A stretch of 56,483 nt of DNA from positions 1-56,483 of IMG/VR virus record IMGVR_UViG_3300015259_000006; one strand, written 5' to 3'. Made by a program: the position numbers and the translations under genes. The DNA is from a virus. Taxonomy: Duplodnaviria; Caudoviricetes. The notes under the pieces are model-generated. The model searched no databases. It was given only the letters and a program-made list of their open reading frames with translations, and had not been told where the DNA came from. This document shows positions 12,478-34,279 of this stretch, in pieces (positions within the stretch are counted from its first letter, which is position 1; each line of letters begins with the position of its first letter).

Positions 12478-15290
12478 CGTCGTCCTCCTCGTCGGTTTCG
12501 CGCGTAGGGGTTCACGAACGGTTGGCCGCGGCCGCCGGCCGGCGGCTTCTGGTCGAGGCCCGAGGCGGCGAGCACCCGGCGGCGCAGCATCTCGCGCGTG
12601 TCGAGCATCGGCGGCTCGTTCCGCTGGCCGAGCACCTCCATCTGGGACTTGTCGGCCTCCCGCCAGATCCACGGCTGCAGGTGGAGCAGCGCCTGGCTCG
12701 TCATGTCCACGTCGTCGTCGTGCGAGCCGTTCGGGAAGGCGGCGTGCTCCTCGATGTAGTCCCAGACCCAGGGTGCTATCGCCGGGTGGGGGACGTAGAC
12801 GTTGTGCGCCGCGAGGAGGGCGACCATGCTCATGGCCCGGGCGTCTGAATCCTTGCTCGACGACGCGGCGGTCATGACGCGCGACACCTTTGAGCCCTGC
12901 GGGCTCGCCGGGATGAGGCCTCCGACCTCGCGACGGAGAATGGCGATCGCCGCGGGCCCGTTCGCCTTGTCCTCGACGATCTTCTTCACGGCCTTCGGGA
13001 AGCGGGTCGTCATGTCGCGGATCGCCTGGACGAGAGCCACGATGTCCATACGCTCGTTCACGCGGTCGAGCAGGAAGCACTGGGCCCCCGCACGCCCCCA
13101 GCATCCACCCGAGACGGGGTCGGGCGGCCGCCCCTTCCGGACCTGGCCGGCCTCGTCCTTGAAGCTCGCATCCCAGGACTGGAGGAGCTCGTCGCCGCCG
13201 CCGCGGTCGTCGGTCTTGAAGTCGGGCAGTTCCACTGCCGGCGGGTACTCGATGCCCTCCTTCGACCGGATCGGGGCGAGGAGTGCCGCGCGCGTCTCCG
13301 GCTGGAGGCCGCGCGGGACCCAGAACCGCCACCACTCCCGCCTGATGATGCCGCCCTCGAGCGGCGACGGGTCCTGCTGATGCTGGGCTGAGTAGCCGTG
13401 GGGGCCGAGCGTGACCTTCGTCTGCTCGATGACCTCGGCCGTGAACCGCGAGGGCCAGAGCAGCTCGCCCTTGTGGGTCCGCGGGTCCTTCCAGCCGATC
13501 GGGCTCACCTCGTGGATGTCCATGACGGCCCGCGGGTCGTACTCGGTCGGCAGCTTCAGGTGGACCCAGGGCAGGGACGACTCCCGGAGGAGATGCCCGG
13601 TGACGTCGTCGTGGTGCGTCCGCTGGGCGATGCCGACGACCCTCGAGCCCCGGGGGTCGTTCATGCGGCCGAGGAACACCTGGTCGATGTACCGGTGTGC
13701 CGCAGTGCGGACGGCATCGGAGTCCGCCTCCTCGATCTTGATCGGGTCGTCGAAGCAGTTGTGGGTGAGGATGCCGTTCGCGTAGAAGTCGTGGTCCGGC
13801 TCGCAGGTCAGGTTGTAGACGGCAGCGGGCGACGGGCAGCGGCGCGCAGAGACGAGCCGTACCGTCTCATCGTGGGCGCGTGGATCCCCTTCTTCGTGTG
13901 GATGAGTCGGTGGCAGGGCACGCAGAGGGTCACCAGGTTGGTGGCCGCGTGATCGGTCTTCGAGCCGTCGAGATGGTGAACGTGAAGCAACCGCGGCTTC
14001 CCCTGGCACATCAGGCAGCAGACATCCCGTTGCCTCACCAGCCGTCTCAAGAATTTCGGAAACCCTGGAGAGTACGGCGTGCGCCATCCCCCGTGCAGGT
14101 AGCGGCCGTTGTTCTGGCCGCGAATGGCGGTTCGGTGGATCGTGCTCGAGCACCGTGTCGAGCAGCAACGCTCTTTGTTCCTGGGGATGAAGGTTCGTGA
14201 GCACACGCTGCAGGTGCGCCGCCGCGCCTCGCGTTGTGCTGCCCCTCGGCAACGATGCGAGCAATATCGTCGCCTCTCCGCCTCGGCCCGGGGCGCCGAG
14301 AACTCGACCTTGCAGTGCGCGCAGACCAAGGTGACCCGACCGCCCCCCCACGAGGGATTGCCCGGACCCGTCTGCGCCTTCGACCAGCACGCTCTCGAGC
14401 AGACGTTCCGGCTCCGTCTCTCGGCGTGGGCTGGGCTGCGGTCGAACGTCGCGCCGCAAACGTCGCAAGAGTACTTCATCAGCGGAGCATATCACATCCA
14501 TGGCCGGGACATACCCCCGTCCCTCCACCCACAGCGGATGCTCCTCGGTGCAGCGGAGTATCCCTCCATCGGAGGTCTCCAGCTCGACAAGTGGTCGCCC
14601 GGAGCTTCGGTGCCAGCCGGTGATTTTCTGCCATCGACCGGAGGATCCGAGCACCCGCGTCTGTAGGCGCTCCTCGACGATCCTCGCGATCGGAAGGGGT
14701 CCATCCTCGGTTTCGATCAGGGTCGAGCCTTCGAGGCACAGGATGTCGCCGCCCTGGCCGGTGGTCCCCGCCTTGACGCCTGCCGTGAAGCGCCGGCCCC
14801 CGCGGTCGTTCTCGTAGTGCGTGATGACGTTCTGGTCGGTCGTCCAGCGGAAGCCCTGGCACCCCACCGCGTGGCGCCCGAGGGGGCACCCGCAGCCCCA
14901 GCGCTGCTGATACCAGTCGGTGTCCATCAGGCGCCGCGAGTAGATGGCGTCCCGGACGGCGAAGCCCACGGAGTACGAGGCGTAGACGAACTGCGTGGCC
15001 GGCCAGCGGGTCCAATGCCACGTCGGCCAGAAGACGGAGACGTACCACGACTTCGAGTGCCTCGGGGCCACCGAGATCAGGAGGAAGCGGATCTGGCCGA
15101 GGGACACCGCCTCGAGATGCTCGGCCATGGCGTCGTGGTGCCAGTTGTGCGCAAAGGGGACGGTCGGCTGCGTCTGCTCCCAGGCGCTGGGCGCGTAGCG
15201 AGAGAGGCTCCGGCCAAGGCGATGGCGCTGGACCTGCTCGAGGGTCGCCTCGCTGAGCTGGTGCGGTTCGGGAGTGGGCTCTGTCGCCAC
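12474..15290 (-). CDS. terL: Terminase large subunit containing an intein
   Basis: Walker A region VAPRHSKS; Walker B rejoined as GGDIL|CFDDP; nuclease motifs QSWDASFK, IVEDKANG, FPNGSHDDDVD. Confidence 0.95.
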   Translation of the reverse strand: MATEPTPEPHQLSEATLEQVQRHRLGRSLSRYAPSAWEQTQPTVPFAHNWHHDAMAEHLEAVSLGQIRFLLISVAPRHSKSWYVSVFWPTWHWTRWPATQFVYASYSVGFAVRDAIYSRRLMDTDWYQQRWGCGCPLGRHAVGCQGFRWTTDQNVITHYENDRGGRRFTAGVKAGTTGQGGDILCLEGSTLIETEDGPLPIARIVEERLQTRVLGSSGRWQKITGWHRSSGRPLVELETSDGGILRCTEEHPLWVEGRGYVPAMDVICSADEVLLRRLRRDVRPQPSPRRETEPERLLESVLVEGADGSGQSLVGGRSGHLGLRALQGRVLGAPGRGGEATILLASLPRGSTTRGAAAHLQRVLTNLHPQEQRALLLDTVLEHDPPNRHSRPEQRPLPARGMAHAVLSRVSEILETAGEATGCLLPDVPGEAAVASRSPSRRLEDRSRGHQPGDPLRALPPTHPHEEGDPRAHDETVRLVSARRCPSPAAVYNLTCEPDHDFYANGILTHNCFDDPIKIEEADSDAVRTAAHRYIDQVFLGRMNDPRGSRVVGIAQRTHHDDVTGHLLRESSLPWVHLKLPTEYDPRAVMDIHEVSPIGWKDPRTHKGELLWPSRFTAEVIEQTKVTLGPHGYSAQHQQDPSPLEGGIIRREWWRFWVPRGLQPETRAALLAPIRSKEGIEYPPAVELPDFKTDDRGGGDELLQSWDASFKDEAGQVRKGRPPDPVSGGCWGRAGAQCFLLDRVNERMDIVALVQAIRDMTTRFPKAVKKIVEDKANGPAAIAILRREVGGLIPASPQGSKVSRVMTAASSSKDSDARAMSMVALLAAHNVYVPHPAIAPWVWDYIEEHAAFPNGSHDDDVDMTSQALLHLQPWIWREADKSQMEVLGQRNEPPMLDTREMLRRRVLAASGLDQKPPAGGRGQPFVNPYARNRRGGRR
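13808..14479 (-). CDS. HNH endonuclease with Zn-finger repeats, nested in the +1 frame inside the intein
   Basis: Three CxxC...CSxxC repeats, GNPSWGGG/NNGRYLHG motifs, RQRD..CLMC...LHVHHLD...NLVTLCVPCHRLIH. Confidence 0.9.
   Translation of the reverse strand: MKYSCDVCGATFDRSPAHAERRSRNVCSRACWSKAQTGPGNPSWGGGRVTLVCAHCKVEFSAPRAEAERRRYCSHRCRGAAQREARRRTCSVCSRTFIPRNKERCCSTRCSSTIHRTAIRGQNNGRYLHGGWRTPYSPGFPKFLRRLVRQRDVCCLMCQGKPRLLHVHHLDGSKTDHAATNLVTLCVPCHRLIHTKKGIHAPTMRRYGSSLRAAARRPLPSTT
14486..14494 (-). promoter_or_regulatory. Extended -10 promoter candidate for leaderless expression of the nested HNH
   Basis: TG-A-TATGCT, then 6 nt, then ATG 14479; no Shine-Dalgarno. Confidence 0.5.
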
Positions 15291-18876: not shown

Positions 18877-19342
18877 GGTCTTTCCTCCCAAGTATTTGTC
18901 GAAGATCAATCTCCACGAGGGCCAGGTCCGTCTTCCCCCTCGTCGTCTTGGCGCGCAGCTCGAGCCGCTCGTACTCCTGGTCCCCGAGCACACGCCGGAA
19001 GAACGTCTCCTTGGCCAGGTGGTCGGAGTCCACTTCCCCGTGGCAGTGGCGGCAGAGCGGCCAGCCGTTCGACGGCTCGAAGCGGAGCCCTCGATACTTG
19101 CCCTTGATGAAGCAGTGGGCGGCGTCCGACCACGGCCGCTTCAGGCAGCGCTCGCACCACTTCCCGACTCGGCCCTTCCGGTAGATGACCTGCACCCACA
19201 GCCGATTGCACCGCCGCTCTCGCGTCCGGTAGTCGGAGGAACTCGCCGCTCGGAGGATGGTCGACCGCCGCGGAAGCCGGGTCCTGCGGATCCACTTCCG
19301 CGGCTTCGGCTCCCGCTGGGGAGGTTTCGGCAGCGAGGTCAT
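18701..19342 (-). CDS. NinG/Rap-like HNH-fold nuclease
   Basis: CERC...DAAHCF...LRFEPSNGWPLCRHCH...LGDQEYERL; C-terminus runs 176 nt into the next gene. Confidence 0.75.
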   Translation of the reverse strand: MTSLPKPPQREPKPRKWIRRTRLPRRSTILRAASSSDYRTRERRCNRLWVQVIYRKGRVGKWCERCLKRPWSDAAHCFIKGKYRGLRFEPSNGWPLCRHCHGEVDSDHLAKETFFRRVLGDQEYERLELRAKTTRGKTDLALVEIDLRQILGRKDHGREEAAGDAPVGQLQPEAGGIRRVPRDRRRAAGHGARHPDAEQAPGGGPGADGPLAR

Positions 19343-26283: not shown

Positions 26284-26435
26284 GTCCTTCCTCCTCCGTT
26301 GTGGTCCTTGCGCCACCCCGGCGTCACGCGCCCGGGGTCGTCGTCGTCTGGACCAGCGGCAGCCAGGAGCGCCGGGAGGGCGATCAAGGCTCCGGCCAGG
26401 AGGATCAGCGTGGCGACGATCTGGTCGGCAGTCAT
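26280..26435 (-). CDS. Tiny membrane protein
   Basis: MTADQIVATLILLAGALIALP; ATGA overlaps. Confidence 0.55.
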   Translation of the reverse strand: MTADQIVATLILLAGALIALPALLAAAGPDDDDPGRVTPGWRKDHNGGGRT

Positions 26436-28909
26436 GCCGCAGCCTCCGGGACGACCGTGCCGCCCGCCACCAGCAAGCGCGAGTCCGCCCCCTGCCAGAC
26501 CTCGGGGGAGTGGGACACGAAGAGGACCTGGTCGAACCCCCCGAGGTCCATCGCCCGCCGGAGCATCTCCACGTAGGCGTGCGCGTTCTCTGGGTCGAGG
26601 GCACCGGCCGTTTCGTCGCGCCAGAGCGTTCGATACTGGATGCCGGATTTGCGGCTGTTGTAGATCGAAAGCGCCAGCCCGAGGGCCTCCCCGACGACTA
26701 CCCGCTCCCCGCCGGACAGCGCCTCGACGGGCCGCTCCTGGCCGCCGTCGTAGACCCGGACGTCGAACGACTCGGTGTACTCGCCGGGCGCCGACTTCTT
26801 CTCCCGGAGGGTCTCCAGTGCGATGCTGAAGCGGGGGCCGTAGCAGGCCGTGAGCAGATCGTTCGTGACCTGGCTCACCTGTGGTCCCGCGGCGTCGATC
26901 TCGAGGGCTTGGATGCCGTCCCGGCCGAGGGCCCGCTCGAGGAGCGCCCAGTCCCCGAGCTCCTGTTCGGCCACCGCCACGTCCTTCCGGCGGGGCTCGA
27001 GGGCCGCGACCACCGCCTCGATCCGCTTGACGGTGGCTGCGGCCTGTCCCCGGCGCTCGTCCAGGGCCCGGAGCTTCGCCTCGACGCCCACGCGGCGGTC
27101 GCGCACGGTGGCGACCACGTCCCGGGCGAGGGCCAGATTCGGGGCGGCGGCTTCCTGGGCCTTCTCGGCTTCGACCGTGCCGAAGCGCGCCTTCGCCTCT
27201 CCGAGGCGCTTCTTGGCGGCGGCGACCTGTTCCTGCGCGTCGAAGAGCGCCTCGGCGAGATCTTCCCCGATCCGCTCTGTCTCGGTCACGACCTGCGCCC
27301 TGGCCGCCTCCGCCTCGGCCAGTCCCGACGCCAGGGCGCTGTCGATCAGGGCGTGCTCCTCTTTCTTGGCGACGAGGTCCCGCCGCGCGGCCGCGATCAA
27401 CACGGCGCGCGCGGCGGTCTCCTGCCAAGCCGCGCTCTCGATGGCTCGCTTCGCGATGCGGGCCCGGAGTTCCGCGGGCTCCGCCTGTACCTTGGCCCAC
27501 TGCTCGTCTGCCTCGGAGGAGCGGCGCCGCACGTCCTCGACGAGGACGAGAAGCTCCGGATCGACCTTGACCGTCGTGATGGCGAGCTTCGCCGCCCGCG
27601 CGTCTTTCAGAAGCGGGCACGCACCCGCGAGGTCCACGCCGAGCAAGCGGCCGCGCCCAGGTCCGGCCACCAGCTCTCGCTCACTGCGCCACCACGCATC
27701 GACGGCCGTACACGGCGCCTCGTTCATCAGCCCGGCTTGGCGCTGGAGCGCGCGCACCCGCTCCGCCACCGCCAGCTCGGCGTCCTCCAGCCTCCTCTCG
27801 GCGCCGGCGAGCTCCACCGCGAGCCGCGCCCGGAGGGACTCGATGCCGGCCAACTCGCCCATCCGGGCCTGGATCTCGGCGCTCTCCCCCTTCATGGCCT
27901 CGAGCTTGGCGACAGCAGCTTGGACGGCGGGCTCCTCGGCGATGACCGCCGTGGCGCTGGCGACCTGCGCGTCCAGTCGCTCGCGGGCGCTCTGGTGGAG
28001 CCGTCTCGCCCGCGCCTCCATCCCGTCCGGGTCCTGCCCGGCCAGCGCCTGCCGGCGTCTCGTCGCCTCGGTCTGAGCCTTCAGGCCCAGGTTCGCCGCC
28101 GCACGGATCGCCGCTTCCGCCGCCTCGACTTCCCGGGCGGCGCCCTCCCGGGCGCGCTCCAGGGCCTCCAGGCGCTCCTGGGCGCTCTTGGCCCGCTCGA
28201 GCGTGGCGACAGCCGCGGCTTCCTCCTCCTGCACGTCCTTGAGGACCAGGGCGAGCCCCTCCGCCTCCCCCTCGGCCATCTCCAGGGCGACCTTGGCGGG
28301 CCCCAGCGCCGCCGCCTCCGCCTCGGCCGATGCGATGGACTGGCGTTCGACCGCCAGGGCGGTCTCCGCGGCCTGCCGGCGATCGTGCGCCCGCTGGGCC
28401 AGCTCCTGCAGCCGACCGAGCCCGAGGAGTTGCGCGAACAGTTCCTTCCTGCCCTTCCGGTCCATGGTCAGGAAGCTGCCGGCCTTGTTCTGGGACGCGA
28501 ACGCGCTGGCGAGGAAGAGCTCCTGAGAGCCGAAGCGCCGGACGATCTCCGCCTCGAAGTCCTTGGCCTTTCCGCTCGTCAGGGGCTCCCCGTTCAGGAA
28601 GAGGTAGCCCTCGGTGAGCTTGCGATCCGCGTCGACCTGCACCCGGACCTTGATCTGGTCGCCGTCCTGGCCGAAAAATTCCGCCTCAACAAAGGCATCA
28701 CGACCATGACAGTGATCGTAGAGACTTCCGGGCCTCGTCGGAAGCCTCTTATAGAGAGCCGCGCAGACGGCTTCGAGTGCAGTGCTCTTTCCGGCTCCGT
28801 TCTGCCCGACGAGCGCGACGAGTCCGGGGCCGAGCGCCTCGAAGTCGATCCGGACCGGGGCCCCCGTGAACCGCGTGAGCCCCCTGAAAGCAAGCCTGCG
28901 AAGCTTCAT
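26432..28909 (-). CDS. sbcC: SbcC/Rad50-like SMC ATPase
   Basis: GQNGAGKST, Q-loop ASQ, coiled coil, LSGGE, WRDETAGALD, VSH. Confidence 0.95.
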   Translation of the reverse strand: MKLRRLAFRGLTRFTGAPVRIDFEALGPGLVALVGQNGAGKSTALEAVCAALYKRLPTRPGSLYDHCHGRDAFVEAEFFGQDGDQIKVRVQVDADRKLTEGYLFLNGEPLTSGKAKDFEAEIVRRFGSQELFLASAFASQNKAGSFLTMDRKGRKELFAQLLGLGRLQELAQRAHDRRQAAETALAVERQSIASAEAEAAALGPAKVALEMAEGEAEGLALVLKDVQEEEAAAVATLERAKSAQERLEALERAREGAAREVEAAEAAIRAAANLGLKAQTEATRRRQALAGQDPDGMEARARRLHQSARERLDAQVASATAVIAEEPAVQAAVAKLEAMKGESAEIQARMGELAGIESLRARLAVELAGAERRLEDAELAVAERVRALQRQAGLMNEAPCTAVDAWWRSERELVAGPGRGRLLGVDLAGACPLLKDARAAKLAITTVKVDPELLVLVEDVRRRSSEADEQWAKVQAEPAELRARIAKRAIESAAWQETAARAVLIAAARRDLVAKKEEHALIDSALASGLAEAEAARAQVVTETERIGEDLAEALFDAQEQVAAAKKRLGEAKARFGTVEAEKAQEAAAPNLALARDVVATVRDRRVGVEAKLRALDERRGQAAATVKRIEAVVAALEPRRKDVAVAEQELGDWALLERALGRDGIQALEIDAAGPQVSQVTNDLLTACYGPRFSIALETLREKKSAPGEYTESFDVRVYDGGQERPVEALSGGERVVVGEALGLALSIYNSRKSGIQYRTLWRDETAGALDPENAHAYVEMLRRAMDLGGFDQVLFVSHSPEVWQGADSRLLVAGGTVVPEAAA

Positions 28910-28913
28910 GGGC

Positions 28914-30077
28914 TCAGCCCTCCCGCTCGATCGTCGTGACCTTGTCCGCGAGGCGGGCCTGTTGCTCGGGCGTGATGCTCATGCCCTTCGCGTCGAAGTA
29001 GGCCTGGAGCTTGTCGGCGATCGACTTGGACGCCCCTATCGACTCGCTGCGGACGCGGGTCTCGTGCTGGACGACCGCCTCGAGCTTCACCTCGGCGGCG
29101 CCGTGGTCGAGCAGGAAGCGCCGGAGCGTGTCCTCGTCGACGGTGTGCAACTGGCCGGCTCCGATCCGGTAGCGGAATCGCACGAGCGCCCCCTTGATCT
29201 CAGCGAGTTGTCCGGGCGTGCAGATGGCATCGCCCTGTCCTGCGGTCTGGGTCCAGTCGGCCTCGAGCAGCAGGATCTCGCGGGCCGGGAGAGGGCGGAA
29301 CTCCAACCCGGCGAAGGAGCCGTCCTCGTTGAAGCTCACGAGGTTGTAGCCCTTCGGCTCGCTCTCCCCGAAGTTCTGGCGCACCGGCGAACCGCTGTAG
29401 GAGACGCGGCCGTCGAACCACGATTGGCTCTTGTGAACATGCCCCAGGGCCGCGTACTCGCAGCCGATCTCCTGGATCGCGTAGGGAGTCAACTCGATCC
29501 CGACTCCCTGCATGACCTGCCCGGTACTGGTCACGGATCCGGCCACCATGAGATGTGACACGAGGATCGGGACGAAGCCCTCGGCGCGAAGGCGCGAAGC
29601 CTCGGCATGTAGACCAACCAGAAGGGTCTCCATCGCCTCGATCGTCATCAGCCGTGTCTTCTCGGAATCGACCCCGGCGTCGAGATGTGACACGAAGTGG
29701 CTCTTGTCCGCCCACGGCAACGCGATGATGCCGAAGCGCCCGTGGACGCGGGCGCCCTCCGGAAGCGTCGGCCGGTCCATGACGACGAGAGGGAGGTGGG
29801 TTTCAAGACGACCGAAGATCGTCAGATCTCCGGCAACATCGTGGTTCCCCTTCACGATGAATACCCCCGCGATGGACGCAGCCTCCTGGAGAAACTCCGC
29901 CAAGACGATGCGCTCCTCCGGGGTGGATCGCCGGTCGAAGAGGTCGCCCGCGATGACGATCAGGTCTACGGCCTGCGCCTTCACGTCAGCCAGGAAGGCG
30001 TTCAGGACCACAATGAGGTCCGCTGGGCGCAGGTGCTCGCAGACGTGCAGGTCCGAGGTGTGGGCCAGTGTCAACAC
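28914..30077 (-). CDS. sbcD: SbcD/Mre11-like nuclease
   Basis: HTSDLH, AGDLFD, GNHD, SH, ALGHVH, YSGSP; GTG 30077 with GGAGG RBS, overlapping the HNH stop. Confidence 0.95.
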   Translation of the reverse strand: MLTLAHTSDLHVCEHLRPADLIVVLNAFLADVKAQAVDLIVIAGDLFDRRSTPEERIVLAEFLQEAASIAGVFIVKGNHDVAGDLTIFGRLETHLPLVVMDRPTLPEGARVHGRFGIIALPWADKSHFVSHLDAGVDSEKTRLMTIEAMETLLVGLHAEASRLRAEGFVPILVSHLMVAGSVTSTGQVMQGVGIELTPYAIQEIGCEYAALGHVHKSQSWFDGRVSYSGSPVRQNFGESEPKGYNLVSFNEDGSFAGLEFRPLPAREILLLEADWTQTAGQGDAICTPGQLAEIKGALVRFRYRIGAGQLHTVDEDTLRRFLLDHGAAEVKLEAVVQHETRVRSESIGASKSIADKLQAYFDAKGMSITPEQQARLADKVTTIEREG

Positions 30078-30544
30078 GCGATTCCTCCCCAGCGCTTTCC
30101 ATTGAGAATGCGACTGATGCAAGAGTCACGAACGCCGAACATCGCTCCGATGTCCTCCTGGCTCCTTCCGCCCGCTGCCCACAGACGCTTGATCTCCAAA
30201 ACGTCCGAGTTCTTGAGCTTGGCCATACCGTGACGGTGCCCGCTGGCGGAACGTTTTCGCCGCGCCATGTCCTCGCCGTTTTGCTTGTGGGTCTTGGGTT
30301 CTATGTGCGCTGGATTGCAGCACGGTGGATCGTCGCAAGAATGCGCGCCCTCCAGACCCTTGGGCATGGGCCGACCCTGCTCGATTTCCCACGCCACACG
30401 GTTGGCTCGAAGGAGTTTGCCGTCGAATGAAATGACCCCGTACCCGCCATTGGTTTGCGCGGCGAGCCACGGCCAGCAAGAACGCGGGCCACCAGAACGA
30501 TCTACGAGCGACCAGAAGTGCCGAATGAACGTGTCTGGATACAT
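30071..30544 (-). CDS. Free-standing HNH homing endonuclease with C-terminal HTH
   Basis: CWPW...GYG...ANRVAW...HSCDDPPCCNPAH...N..DM; AKL...SQEDIGAMFGV..SCISRI..GKRW. Confidence 0.92.
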   Translation of the reverse strand: MYPDTFIRHFWSLVDRSGGPRSCWPWLAAQTNGGYGVISFDGKLLRANRVAWEIEQGRPMPKGLEGAHSCDDPPCCNPAHIEPKTHKQNGEDMARRKRSASGHRHGMAKLKNSDVLEIKRLWAAGGRSQEDIGAMFGVRDSCISRILNGKRWGGIAC

Positions 30545-30556
30545 GGATGGCCGCCT

Positions 30557-30604
30557 CTACTTCTTCTTCTCGTGGGTGTCGCTGATGTGGGCGAGGCGAT
30601 GCAT
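30557..30604 (-). pseudogene. Orphaned 5' stub of an sbcD-type gene (MHRLAHISDTHEKKK*)
   Basis: ATG 1 nt after the upstream stop; encodes metallophosphoesterase motif I (HxSDxH), then stops. Confidence 0.8.
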
Positions 30605-30605
30605 C

Positions 30606-31352
30606 TCAGGCGATCACGGCGACTTTGGTGTCGACGAGCGCGTCCACCAGCCAGGTCTTTATCTGGTCCACGGCCTCGAGCTTCCAGGCCCCTCCGTCGG
30701 CCTCGAAGAGGGCGCATGTGGGCCCGCCGCTCCGGAGCCGGAGGATGAACCGCGACTCGGGCTGCTCGACCTCCCGGAAGGTCCGGTAGGGCGCCAGCGG
30801 GACCGGGTTCGGCACGGGCACCTCGGCCAGCATGACGGCGCCCTGCTTCGCCACCACGCTCTGCGTCACGCCGTCGTCGGTCGTCTGCCGGACCGCCTCG
30901 TCCTTCACGTTGCCGATCAGCTTCAGGACTTGGGCCAGCGTGTCGGTGGGGACGAAGGAGGCCTGCAGGCCGATGATGAACGTCTCCATGTCGTGCCACC
31001 GGCCGAACTCGAAGGCCGCCGCTCCGAAGAGGCTGAGGTCCGCGGTGGCGAGCGTGGCCCGCTGGCGGAAGGCTCCGCTGATGGGGCCGAGGAGCTCGAC
31101 GCGGGTCGGGCCGACCACATGCGCGAGGAGCCCGTCCAGCGCCAGGCCGTCGCGGTTGTCCCTCACGTAGGCGGCGAAACCGGCGAGCGTGCCGAGCTTG
31201 AGCGTGGGCGGCAGGTTCTCCGGCTGCGGAAGTTTTTCGAGCTTCCAGCCTTCGGTGCCGGGGAGGGCCAGGTGCTGGACGTTGTTCACCGTGACGACCT
31301 GGGGCGCCTCGATCGCCTCGGACAAGGCTTCGACGAAGGATCCTTCGATCAT
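30606..31352 (-). CDS. Conserved phage protein (YfdQ/DUF2303-like)
   Basis: VPNPVPLAPYRTFREVEQPES.F..R...ALFEADGGAWK. Confidence 0.75.
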   Translation of the reverse strand: MIEGSFVEALSEAIEAPQVVTVNNVQHLALPGTEGWKLEKLPQPENLPPTLKLGTLAGFAAYVRDNRDGLALDGLLAHVVGPTRVELLGPISGAFRQRATLATADLSLFGAAAFEFGRWHDMETFIIGLQASFVPTDTLAQVLKLIGNVKDEAVRQTTDDGVTQSVVAKQGAVMLAEVPVPNPVPLAPYRTFREVEQPESRFILRLRSGGPTCALFEADGGAWKLEAVDQIKTWLVDALVDTKVAVIA

Positions 31353-31354
31353 GG

Positions 31355-31714
31355 CTATGCGCTTCCTTTCTTTCCGACCTCGTGGATCACGGGCCTCTCA
31401 TCGAAGAGTCCCGCCTGGCGTGGATTGAACTCGGTGGCGACGAGCTGGCCCTGGTGGCGGCCGAAGTAGACCTCGGTCTTCGCCCCCTTCAGGCCGGCGA
31501 GCTTGGAGGAGGCCTTGATCCGTACCTCGCCCTTCTCGCGGTCCTCGTCCGGAGCGAACGTCACCTGCAGGGTCACCGTCCGGGTCGCGGTGGCGTCGGT
31601 GTTCGGGTCCTGGATGTTGCGGAGCAGCTTGTCGAGCTCCGACTGGAAGAGCTCGGCAGCCGCGCCGTCGGCCAAGCTCGCGAGTGTCACGACCGGCAGC
31701 GTCTTCTCCGTCAT
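31355..31714 (-). CDS. Conserved phage protein (often annotated replication terminator protein; YfdP-like partner)
   Basis: LADGAAAELF..EL...NIQDPNTDA...RTVTL. Confidence 0.75.
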   Translation of the reverse strand: MTEKTLPVVTLASLADGAAAELFQSELDKLLRNIQDPNTDATATRTVTLQVTFAPDEDREKGEVRIKASSKLAGLKGAKTEVYFGRHQGQLVATEFNPRQAGLFDERPVIHEVGKKGSA

Positions 31715-31746
31715 CTCGTCCTCCCGTTCAAAGAAACGGCGGTCGC

Positions 31747-32883
31747 TCACTTCGCTTGGGTGGCCCACCTCGCCTGGACGTCCTGGGCCGTGAGCGTGGG
31801 CCACCGGGGGATGCCGAGGTTGGCGAGATCCTTGTGGCGCCCGACGTCGAACTGGCGCCCCGGGTAGCAGACCGCGCAACGCGGGGTGCCGATCTTCTGC
31901 TTCGTGACCTCGGCCACCTCGGGCGTGATCTCCCCCTGGCACCCGCACGGGCAGGCGCAGACGATCAGGGACGAAGACGGCTGCTCGTCGAAGTCGGGGA
32001 TCTCGTCCTCGAAGGCCTTGGGTTCGGGTTCCGCGGCGGGCGCGACGGATGGTGCCGCTGCGCCTTTCGCCGGCGCCGCCGGGCCAGGAACGACGGCCGG
32101 CTCACCTGGCATCGCCGGAGGAGCGAGCTTGGCGAGATCCGCAGGGGGCCCGCCCCCAAAGAGCTTCCCGCCCGTGTCCATCGCCTCCTGGATCGCCGCC
32201 GCCTTTTGGTCGGGATCGCTGAGATCCCAGCGCTTGACAAGCTTCGGCACCACCCAAGGCTTTCTCTTGAGGTCGTCCACCTTGTAGACCTGCGCGAGCC
32301 CGAAGAGGGGCCGCAGCGCGCGGAGGATGGCCTTGCTCTCCGCCATCTCGGCCACGAACTGGCGCGCCTGCGCGAGCTGGTTCGGAGTCATCGCCTTGGC
32401 GGCCGGGGAGTTGGGGCTCAGGTCGACGCGCTTGTGGCCGGGGTACTGGCGCCAGAGCCCGTCGAAGTCCTGGTTGTAGACGACCGCTTGAAACTCCGCT
32501 GCGAACGGCTCCTTCCGGTCGTCCACGCGCGTCGAGATCGGGTTGGCTCCGGCCACACCCAGGATCGCGGCCAGGCCGTTCTTGGTGAGGCCGACCTCTC
32601 CCGGGCTCATGAAGGCGGGGTTGAAGTAGCAGTGCGGTCCCGCCTTGTAGATCGTCTTCCCGTTCTCCGTCTTCGTGACGCTGAAGGACGGGTCGATCCA
32701 GAGCACGCGGAGGCTGATCGCGTGGAAGTCCGGGACGTGATCGACGCCAGCGAGCGGGGTGAGGATGAAAGCGGCGTCCTTCTCCCGTAGTGCCGCCAGG
32801 GCAAGCCCGACTTCTCGAGCGCTACTCAGGGGCTTGTTGGGGACGAGGGCTCCGACATCCATTCGAGCGAGCGACTGCGACAT
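31747..32883 (-). CDS. Putative single-strand annealing/recombination protein
   Basis: LTKNGL...EMAESKAILRALR..FGL..Y....L.KPW; C-terminal Zn finger; upstream of sbcDC. Function inferred from context. Confidence 0.55.
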   Translation of the reverse strand: MSQSLARMDVGALVPNKPLSSAREVGLALAALREKDAAFILTPLAGVDHVPDFHAISLRVLWIDPSFSVTKTENGKTIYKAGPHCYFNPAFMSPGEVGLTKNGLAAILGVAGANPISTRVDDRKEPFAAEFQAVVYNQDFDGLWRQYPGHKRVDLSPNSPAAKAMTPNQLAQARQFVAEMAESKAILRALRPLFGLAQVYKVDDLKRKPWVVPKLVKRWDLSDPDQKAAAIQEAMDTGGKLFGGGPPADLAKLAPPAMPGEPAVVPGPAAPAKGAAAPSVAPAAEPEPKAFEDEIPDFDEQPSSSLIVCACPCGCQGEITPEVAEVTKQKIGTPRCAVCYPGRQFDVGRHKDLANLGIPRWPTLTAQDVQARWATQAK

Positions 32884-33338: not shown

Positions 33339-33644
33339 TCACTTGCAGGCGCGGAGCAACTCGCCGCGCTCGTACCGGACGACACGTCCGACTCGACGAA
33401 TCACGCGCGGGGAGCGGCGCGCCAGACGGTGAACGGTTCGGCGGTCGACCTTCAGGAGGGCGGCCGCTTCCTCGATCCGGAGCAACTCCTCGGGCTCCCG
33501 TCCGCCGGCCACGAGCCGCGGACCATGCCGCTCCTCCGTCACCGCCAGGAGGTGCAGCGCATCCGCCACGCGGCGCAGGGCCTCGGCGGCGCCCTCGAGC
33601 GCCTGCTCACGCGCGTTCGCGGTCGTGAGGGCCGTCGCGCTCAT
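33339..33644 (-). CDS. Excisionase-like HTH_17 DNA-binding protein
   Basis: LLRIEEAAALLKVDRRTVHRL...RVGRVVRY. Confidence 0.85.
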   Translation of the reverse strand: MSATALTTANAREQALEGAAEALRRVADALHLLAVTEERHGPRLVAGGREPEELLRIEEAAALLKVDRRTVHRLARRSPRVIRRVGRVVRYERGELLRACK

Positions 33645-33835
33645 TGCGCCGCCTGTGGCTTCTCGGACACATTCTTGAGGGCGGCATCGACAGCCAGCGC
33701 AACCGGGCCAGGGATCAACCTGTGGTTGTTGAGCCACATGCTGACCGCCCCGTCGCTGACCCCAAGATATTGGGCCATCTGGCGTTGATGCCACCCCAGC
33801 TTGTTCAGCGCGGATCGGAGTGTCTTGCTCGTCAT
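33641..33835 (-). CDS. Cro-like XRE HTH regulator (64 aa)
   Basis: LRSALNKLGWHQRQMAQYLGVSDGAVSMWLNNHRLIP. Confidence 0.88.
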   Translation of the reverse strand: MTSKTLRSALNKLGWHQRQMAQYLGVSDGAVSMWLNNHRLIPGPVALAVDAALKNVSEKPQAAQ

Positions 33836-33844
33836 CGTGGATGG

Positions 33845-33883
33845 ATAATGGGGCTTGCTTTTCACGTTGTCAAGCTTTATCTT
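33845..33883. promoter_or_regulatory. Overlapping divergent sigma70-type promoters
   Basis: Minus strand TTGACA-17-CATTAT (33873-33845); plus strand TTGCTT-17-TATCTT (33855-33883); AT-rich island. Confidence 0.8.
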
Positions 33884-33904
33884 GTGAATCTGGAGGCGAA
33901 TCAG

Positions 33905-34279
33905 GTGCCCTGTCAGACGGTAGCCGAGCAGCGAATCTATCAACGCGGTTGGGTCGCTCGACGTCGGGCGGCCTTTCTCGCCGGGAAGGTGTGCGCCGTC
34001 TGTGGGGGCACGGACCGTCTCGAAGTCGACCACGTGGACCCAGCGACGAAGGTGTCGCACAGAATGTGGTCATGGAGCGGGCCGCGGATGGCTGCGGAAC
34101 AGGCGAAGTGCCAAGTCCTCTGCCACGAGCATCACGCGGCCAAGACGGCTGCGTACTACTCCGAGCTGCGGCAACACGGCGCCTCGATGTACGGGAATCG
34201 TGGCTGCCGCTGCGAGGAATGCACCAGCGCCCATCGCGCCAAGGCCGCAGAGTATCGAGGAAGAACAGGAAGACGATGA
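33905..34279 (+). CDS. HNH endonuclease (124 aa)
   Basis: GGAGG RBS; CAVCG...LEVDHVDP...KCQVLCHEHH...HG...Y...GCRCEEC. Confidence 0.9.
   Translation: MPCQTVAEQRIYQRGWVARRRAAFLAGKVCAVCGGTDRLEVDHVDPATKVSHRMWSWSGPRMAAEQAKCQVLCHEHHAAKTAAYYSELRQHGASMYGNRGCRCEECTSAHRAKAAEYRGRTGRR

Follow-up and report, generated by a model that had tools for sequence, protein, structure and literature searches.

Free-standing nuclease genes of phages can move by intronless homing, for which the seg and mob genes of phage T4 (SegF, SegB, MobE) provide the working model. A homing endonuclease may also travel with an adjacent sequence that alters its target, as in the T4 cassette formed by mobA and the gene 60 bypass. 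In Aeromonas phage Aeh1, nrdA is reportedly split by mobE into two pieces that are both needed and assemble into one enzyme (said to come from Friedrich, 2007). The atp6 gene of Allomyces macrogynus was reportedly presented by Paquin in 1994 as an mORF gene hybrid. In fungal mitochondria, such hybrids occur in Glomus (atp6, atp9, cox2 and nad3), where an endonuclease open reading frame (ORF), the mORF, brings a diverged foreign gene end and the native gene end persists alongside as a remnant near-identical to the gene of close relatives (PMC3630166). In the ICP1 phages, nuclease genes mark the boundaries of genetic exchange (PMC10448857). Here we describe a locus of the virus record IMGVR_UViG_3300015259_000006 (Duplodnaviria; Caudoviricetes) in which the gene of an HNH endonuclease, HNH-A, stands between a 15-codon stub resembling the start of sbcD and a complete sbcD gene. 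We refer to the whole analysed stretch of 56,483 bp as the window; it spans the entire record, whose estimated completeness is 98%, and has a GC content of 0.686.

All genes of the locus lie on the minus strand. The stop codon TGA of p248, a gene of the resident backbone, is followed by gATG, the start of the stub ORF (30604-30557; MHRLAHISDTHEKKK-stop). The first part of the stub (30571..30604; ATG, 10 further codons and 1 nt) covers motif I of the SbcD nuclease (MHRLAHISDTH); the second part (30557..30570) is the tail (E)KKK-stop. A spacer (30545..30556) separates the stub from the ATG of HNH-A (30544-30071; 157 amino acids), 12 nt downstream, which is preceded by GAGG (30557-30554), a motif that shares the last base of the stub's stop codon. 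The ribosome-binding site (RBS) of sbcD, GGAGG (30088-30084), lies within the 3' end of HNH-A, and the stop codon of HNH-A falls within GTGTTGA, the start of sbcD. This gene (28914..30077; 387 amino acids, GTG at 30077) begins MLTLAHTSDLHV... and opens with a second copy of motif I (30044..30077; GTG, then LTLAHTSDLH). We call the resident type of the gene sbcD-1 and the gene now present in the window sbcD-2. The stub, its coupling to the upstream gene, the HNH gene that follows and the RBS inside the 3' end of that gene are read directly in the sequence, as the original prediction had described them.

Judged by its matches to related loci, the stub is composed of 11 codons of a resident sbcD-1 gene fused to the last four codons and the stop codon of a p378-family gene from a donor. 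On this analysis it is probably a recombination scar: HNH-A would have broken sbcD-1, the break would have been repaired from an HNH-bearing donor and the left side would have been joined illegitimately.

The relatives used for comparison were fetched with an alignment of 19 SbcD relatives, which gave 27 viral loci and, out of 87 from metagenomes, the 80 that were kept. A BLAST search of positions 28000-32000 against 50,697 phage records returned only one short irrelevant match, a search of viral contigs for SbcD loci with one protein as the query returned one distant locus only, and none of the loci reached via p248 (L003-L012) carries an sbcD gene downstream. Among HNH-less relatives, the start of sbcD agrees with the first 34 nt of the stub at 33 of 34 positions in L085 (MHRLAHISDTHVCEHLR) and at 32 of 34 in L061 (MHRLAHISDTHICEHLR). 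In L061 the gene order is p378, p121 (96% amino acid identity to the gene of the window), p248 (93%) and then sbcD directly, with the same TGAgATG coupling; the layout of L085 is similar. Upstream of the junction the window and L061 are about 90% identical over 2.3 kb, with 47-60 identical nucleotides in 36 of 39 segments of 60 nt. The three exceptions are gapped segments within p378, and p248 mostly has 50-60 identical nucleotides per segment. After the junction the identity is about 63% (26-45 of 60 nt in all nine segments), and the step is located at 30571/30570. A Logan contig of run X4 follows the window to 30571 and then becomes sbcD of the L085 type, the HNH-less form. The breakpoint is thus observed in the comparison with three HNH-less relatives (L061, L085 and run X4), whose sbcD starts match the stub as was expected if the stub is the old start of the gene.

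Motif I is present twice at the protein level, and the two DNA copies share 19 of 34 nt, so the duplication had been correctly described as conserved in protein and diverged in DNA. A loose motif-I pattern searched in the six frames of the window matches only the stub and the true sbcD start. Across 91 related loci, the 122,700 nt searched ahead of sbcD contain this pattern only in L040 (see below) and at one spurious site. Because the pattern is so rare in the window and in the related loci, the motif I of the stub is not a chance resemblance.

The other half of the stub has its counterpart at the end of p378, which encodes a 378-amino-acid protein (32883-31747 in the window). Over its final 15 nt (GAG AAG AAG AAG TAG) the stub matches the 3' end of the p378 homologue of L042 at 15 of 15 positions. 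This homologue ends ...VEKKK-stop, 7 nt ahead of its sbcD ATG; that of L058 ends ...KQKK-stop. The 15-mer occurs twice (in L040 and L042) in 1,589,430 nt of related loci, both strands included, where the composition-blind expectation is about 0.0015; the exact 33-nt junction of stub and tail has no match in viral contigs. The gene order of the wider family is p378, sbcD, sbcC (L013, L042, L043, L058 and many others). Four distinct relatives (L014/L046, L033/L106, L055 and L056/L057) lack a stub but have an HNH_3 gene between p378 and sbcD, so the layout proposed for the donor is a common one. The composition of the stub, with the start of sbcD-1 followed by the tail of a p378-family gene, argues for an illegitimate rather than a homologous join.

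The junction between p378 and sbcD is occupied in other ways as well. In many relatives (e.g. L016, L017, L028, L038, L045, L052, L083, L102 and L110) it holds 200-800 nt with small ORFs. Nine of these were tested: eight matched no Pfam family at E 0.01 or better, and the ninth gave a weak sub-threshold match to DUF2551. The junction looks like a general insertion hot spot, beyond HNH genes.

The sbcD-2 gene matches Metallophos (6.6e-11) and phrog_100 (9.1e-30). The motifs of a calcineurin-like phosphoesterase are present, including the D-x-H of motif I, which places the product in the SbcD/Mre11 class, and an SbcC-like gene follows: sbcC, encoding the partner ATPase (26432..28909, minus strand), has AAA_23/SMC_N matches and a match to phrog_77 (2.2e-49). 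Every invariant column of the 19-sequence alignment is kept in SbcD-2 (D9 and H11 of motif I, D45, N78, H79, H175, H213, H215), and the gene is for this reason complete on its own. SbcD function is thus predicted to be supplied wholly by sbcD-2; the stub is probably translated merely as a by-product, and no splicing is needed. Identity of sbcD-2 to the genes of L040 and L041 is 96-99%, whereas the protein identity is 62% to L061 (over 191 codons) and 55% to L085 (over 152 codons). The level of about 63% nucleotide identity to L061 is maintained across all 570 comparable nt. A hybrid structure of SbcD was sought by sliding identity over 40 residues against the 19 relatives, and no switch was seen.

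These results change one part of the original prediction, which held that the HNH cassette had carried with it a short recoded 5' end of sbcD. The whole of sbcD is the other allele from the junction on, over at least 190 comparable codons. Nor is the new start tied to the cassette, as L041 has this start and RBS downstream of another HNH gene. The motif-I copy, finally, is not specially recoded: its 19 shared nucleotides of 34 correspond to about the gene-wide divergence. A lower GC content of the HNH gene and of the 5' part of sbcD, noted by eye, stands for the former and fails for the latter. The G+C content at third codon positions (GC3) is 0.68 in the HNH gene and 0.87 in sbcD (0.88 in its first 50 codons), compared with 0.93 in p248, 0.87 in p378 and 0.89 in sbcC; the composition is odd in the HNH gene only.

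Two further observations concern the sbcD family. L044 was tried as a continuation of L061 in the search for the right boundary and was rejected: it has only 73% nucleotide identity to both L061 and the window. Its sbcD (L044:848-2154) is a third allele, and is followed by several small unrelated ORFs and not by sbcC. Among 185,579 species genomes, three SbcD relatives were found (29-37% identity), two of them on contigs of Polyangiaceae metagenome-assembled genomes (L128 and L129). Together with the GC content of 69%, these contigs give a weak hint of a myxobacterial host.

HNH-A matches Pfam HNH_3 with 30.8 bits (cut-off 24.8, E 2.2e-7) and phrog_1872, annotated as "endonuclease", at 2.3e-29; it is the sole HNH_3 match above the cut-off in the genome. 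The residues invariant in an alignment of 19 HNH sequences (H68, C70, D71, C75, C76 and N77) are all present. The AlphaFold model has a mean pLDDT of 87.2 and a pTM of 0.62. When compared by VIA-align, residues 1-100 gave middling matches to I-PpoI (Z 7.0, 97 aligned residues, root-mean-square deviation 4.1) and I-HmuI (Z 6.3, 83 aligned residues, 3.0), and residues 105-157 gave similarly middling matches to three-helix DNA-binding (helix-turn-helix) folds (Z about 6). A Foldseek search against the PDB found nothing at E 0.001 or better, I-PpoI and I-HmuI being the top rows at E about 0.2, and a PDB sequence search with HNH-A returned nothing relevant. The model fits a predicted nuclease domain followed by a C-terminal helix-turn-helix domain. 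The gene is free-standing, with its own GAGG and ATG and with separate neighbouring ORFs. Its presence varies: it is found at the locus in the window and L040, not in L061, L085 or run X4, and another HNH_3 gene takes its place in L041.

Elsewhere in the window, sub-threshold matches to PF01844 lie inside larger ORFs at 13895-14017 (minus strand, 19.9 bits) and 19034-19156 (minus strand, 17.3 bits; cut-off 21.4), and the ORF 33644-34279 (plus strand) has an HNH-like Cys/His pattern by eye.

Four alleles are observed at the locus: the HNH-less form, the stub with HNH-A of the window, the same cassette in a second backbone (L040), and a different HNH gene without a stub (L041). They come from four studies, all of freshwater-sediment metagenomes. 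In run X1, which may be the source of the record, one contig covers 29700-30900 without a difference. Among 18 sequencing runs, none holding the locus was listed as RNA. L040 carries the stub, HNH-A and sbcD-2 at 97.6% identity to the window over 1,686 nt, and its upstream context is the end of a p378 homologue (69% amino acid identity) followed by a 24-codon ORF. Its stub, MTLHRLAHISDTHEKKK, differs from that of the window at 30596, 30595 and 30593 and by two extra codons; past these differences the two are identical for 185 nt, until 30407. Because L040 differs in the first stub codons and matches the window from there on, a crossover between the two backbones is placed inside the stub. A contig of run X2 breaks at 30592, as L040 does. 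The N-terminus MTLHRLAH, the native start of the L040 type, is absent from 69 fetched relatives.

The L041 allele has p248 at 94.3% nucleotide identity over 749 nt and sbcD-2 at 99.0% over 878 nt, the latter from about 12 nt before the GTG. The interval between them (951-1714) contains no stub; it holds an ORF of 102 amino acids that resembles MazG weakly, at 18.5 bits where the cut-off is 22, and then a gene, HNH-B, which matches HNH_3 (1.2e-12) and ends in the same few codons overlapping the sbcD start. Contigs of run X3 show both breakpoints of the L041 type, at 30084 and 30605, and homology of this type resumes at about the RBS of sbcD. HNH-B is without the C-terminal helix-turn-helix and without the conserved PAH of the HNH motif, and may be a decaying nuclease gene.

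Since the four arrangements stand in independent assemblies, a misassembly at the junction, which could have undone the original prediction, is excluded, and the arrangement exists in nature. The sbcD-2 gene is more uniform across the window, L040 and L041 than are their backbones. This fits, on the sequences compared, the pattern expected of flanking DNA that is carried along with a homing endonuclease gene.

In L040, sbcD and sbcC are separated by a third HNH_3 gene, HNH-C (Pfam 1.8e-9; L040:2283-2800, corresponding to 28916-28905 of the window, where there is no insert). The HNH-C ORF opens with MKLRR, the first five residues of SbcC, in similar nucleotides, and continues with a typical HNH N-terminus. 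After it, sbcC restarts as VKLRRLAFRGL in different codons, and the last 25 or so nucleotides of sbcD also differ from the window. HNH-C may be a second case of an old gene start followed by an HNH gene and a restart, here fused in frame to the HNH gene, which suggests that such scars are not unique. Of the 41 differences between L040 and the window, 16 cluster in 95 nt of sbcD (window 29306-29212), in the variable region around TQTAGQGDAICTPGQ, and look like a small separate exchange patch.

The scar would have arisen as follows. The ancestor would have had the order p378, p121, p248, sbcD-1, as in L061, with sbcD-1 translationally coupled to p248; in the window p121 (a phrog_997 protein) is at 31720-31355 and p248 (phrog_1029, E 1.1e-59, function unknown) at 31352-30606, both on the minus strand. 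In a co-infecting donor, HNH-A would have stood between a p378-family gene with the end ...EKKK-stop and sbcD-2, a diverged yet complete allele that had an RBS and GTG of its own. HNH-A, or a predecessor of it, most likely broke sbcD-1 in or near the motif-I codons, and the repair of this break would have copied from the HNH-bearing genome. On the right side, repair would have run through the donor sbcD-2 for at least 570 nt. On the left side, where homology would not have been shared, the broken end (codon 11 and 1 nt) would have been joined illegitimately into the last codons of the donor p378-family gene. The product would consist of 11 old codons, four donor codons and a stop, HNH-A and the full sbcD-2. 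The scarred unit would then have spread to the L040 backbone, or have come from it, by a crossover in the 22-nt motif-I part of the stub. The role of HNH-A as the breaker, the site of the cut, the identity of the donor and the sparing of its own copies are taken here from the known behaviour of free-standing homing endonucleases.

Several points weigh against a scar left by HNH-A. After the CD motif, HNH-A has D where most relatives have N, and besides the L040 protein its relatives reach at most 46% identity (16 proteins, of which only that of L040 is close). The four other distinct loci with an HNH gene before sbcD have no stub, which makes the scar a one-off event and not a property of the family. 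A genome with HNH-A and no stub, as proposed for the donor, was not found; three viral loci were obtained, none above 37% identity. As the sequences of L061 and L085 stop within sbcD, the right-hand end of the import lies beyond their reach. Directly behind the duplicated motif, sbcD-2 and L085 share a stretch of 16-17 identical nt, which could hint at an insertion the size of the cassette and is equally explained by conserved residues and the GC3 bias. Finally, L041 has sbcD-2 next to p248 without a stub, with a clean boundary at the p248 stop; the exchange was thus not always scarring, and ordinary mosaic recombination could suffice.

Such ordinary phage mosaicism is the alternative that survives best, although we judge it unlikely. 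An illegitimate recombination between co-infecting relatives would have landed 34 nt inside sbcD, and the HNH gene would have been a mere passenger. Exchange boundaries near gene starts are common in phages, and the activity of HNH-A is predicted from its sequence and model. Yet the breakpoint abuts a nuclease gene of the homing type and falls where the codons of the neighbouring gene are most conserved. The boundaries of sbcD in near-identical phages are occupied by three different HNH_3 genes (A, B and C), and the greater uniformity of sbcD-2 than of the backbones that carry it also speaks against a passenger.

Much less probable still is the insertion of a cassette with duplication in place, in which the segment 30570-30044 was inserted, motif I was duplicated by the filling-in of a staggered cut and the copies later diverged. 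The two copies do share the ending ...CACG, beyond which sbcD-2 and L085 agree, as mentioned, for 16-17 nt. However, a stub at 33 of 34 positions to L085 sits badly with a second copy at only 19 of 34 to the stub. The gene body has about 63% identity to L061 where the flank has about 90%, and in L041 this second copy stands behind another HNH gene.

We give almost no credence to a split or spliced gene, in which an intron, an intein, translational bypass or protein assembly would connect the stub to sbcD: an HNH gene does lie between two sbcD-like pieces, but an RBS, a start codon and the whole of motif I are present in the downstream gene itself, the stub repeats that motif instead of complementing it and ends in four foreign codons and a stop, and a search of 29500-31000 against Rfam at E up to 1 gave no match. 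A group I intron with an internal homing endonuclease was rejected on the same two grounds, the Rfam result and the completeness of the downstream gene. The view that the HNH gene entered without splicing is therefore retained.

The recombination scar may have acquired a use, although we regard this as doubtful. The stub would in that case be a captured piece of the target within a composite mobile unit, serving both as a portable left homology arm and as a translational feeder of the HNH gene. The 22-nt motif-I arm would let HNH-A and sbcD-2 home into any phage of the sbcD-1 type, whatever its upstream gene, and the coupling of the stub (to p248 in the window, to the small ORF in L040) would supply the HNH start just downstream with ribosomes. 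The chimeric stub of L040, with its own first codons followed by sequence shared with the window, would be the expected trace of homing mediated by such an arm.

If the stub is the scar that we propose, the locus is a base-resolution natural record of a homing endonuclease gene moving between phages whose flanks are not both shared. Homology would have resolved one side and an illegitimate join the other, trapping a piece of the target together with a piece of the donor's upstream gene. It would also be a population-level record of allele replacement associated with homing, and an example of nuclease genes reshuffling phage genomes. The four coexisting allelic states make the order of events and the target of the enzyme directly testable. 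For annotation, the locus is a warning that short "orphan" ORFs beside HNH genes can be gene remnants, and that a core repair gene can have been imported recently while the genes around it were not.

Compared with known systems, the locus shares with T4 seg and mob a separate nuclease ORF between conserved genes whose presence varies among close relatives; flanking DNA may also have been carried along here, so that the neighbouring allele would spread with the nuclease gene. Unlike in T4, homology would not have resolved the left side, where part of the target gene stayed behind as a stub fused to the tail of a donor gene. The likeness to the T4 mobA and gene 60 cassette is conceptual only, no bypass element being present in the window. 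With nrdA and mobE of Aeh1 the locus has in common a free-standing HNH gene inside a former single reading frame; here, unlike in Aeh1, the stub is redundant beside a complete downstream gene. Genes in pieces were rejected as a description on this ground, as they need two non-overlapping fragments and the 11 residues of the stub overlap residues 1-11 of the full gene. The exchange boundaries of ICP1 are similar in that a nuclease gene of the homing type lies exactly at a sharp identity step between related phages. The joint described here differs in being located at single-base resolution with the origin of both sides identified. A word search of the text of the ICP1 paper found no target-gene stub, and no phage stub made of a target start and a donor gene tail was found in the open-access literature searched by specific words.

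The closest structural parallel is provided by the mORF hybrids: the native 5' end in the window is at 33 of 34 positions to L085, and the second copy at 19 of 34 to it. The present case is the mirror image of those hybrids in that the 5' end of the gene is concerned and not the 3' end, the remnant is reduced to 11 codons, the genome is that of a phage and the nuclease belongs to HNH_3. In the hybrids only the terminus is foreign, whereas here the whole gene is foreign as far as it can be compared, with no hybrid pattern. The locus would thus extend the hybrid-gene pattern of fungal mitochondria to phages and to the 5' end of a gene.

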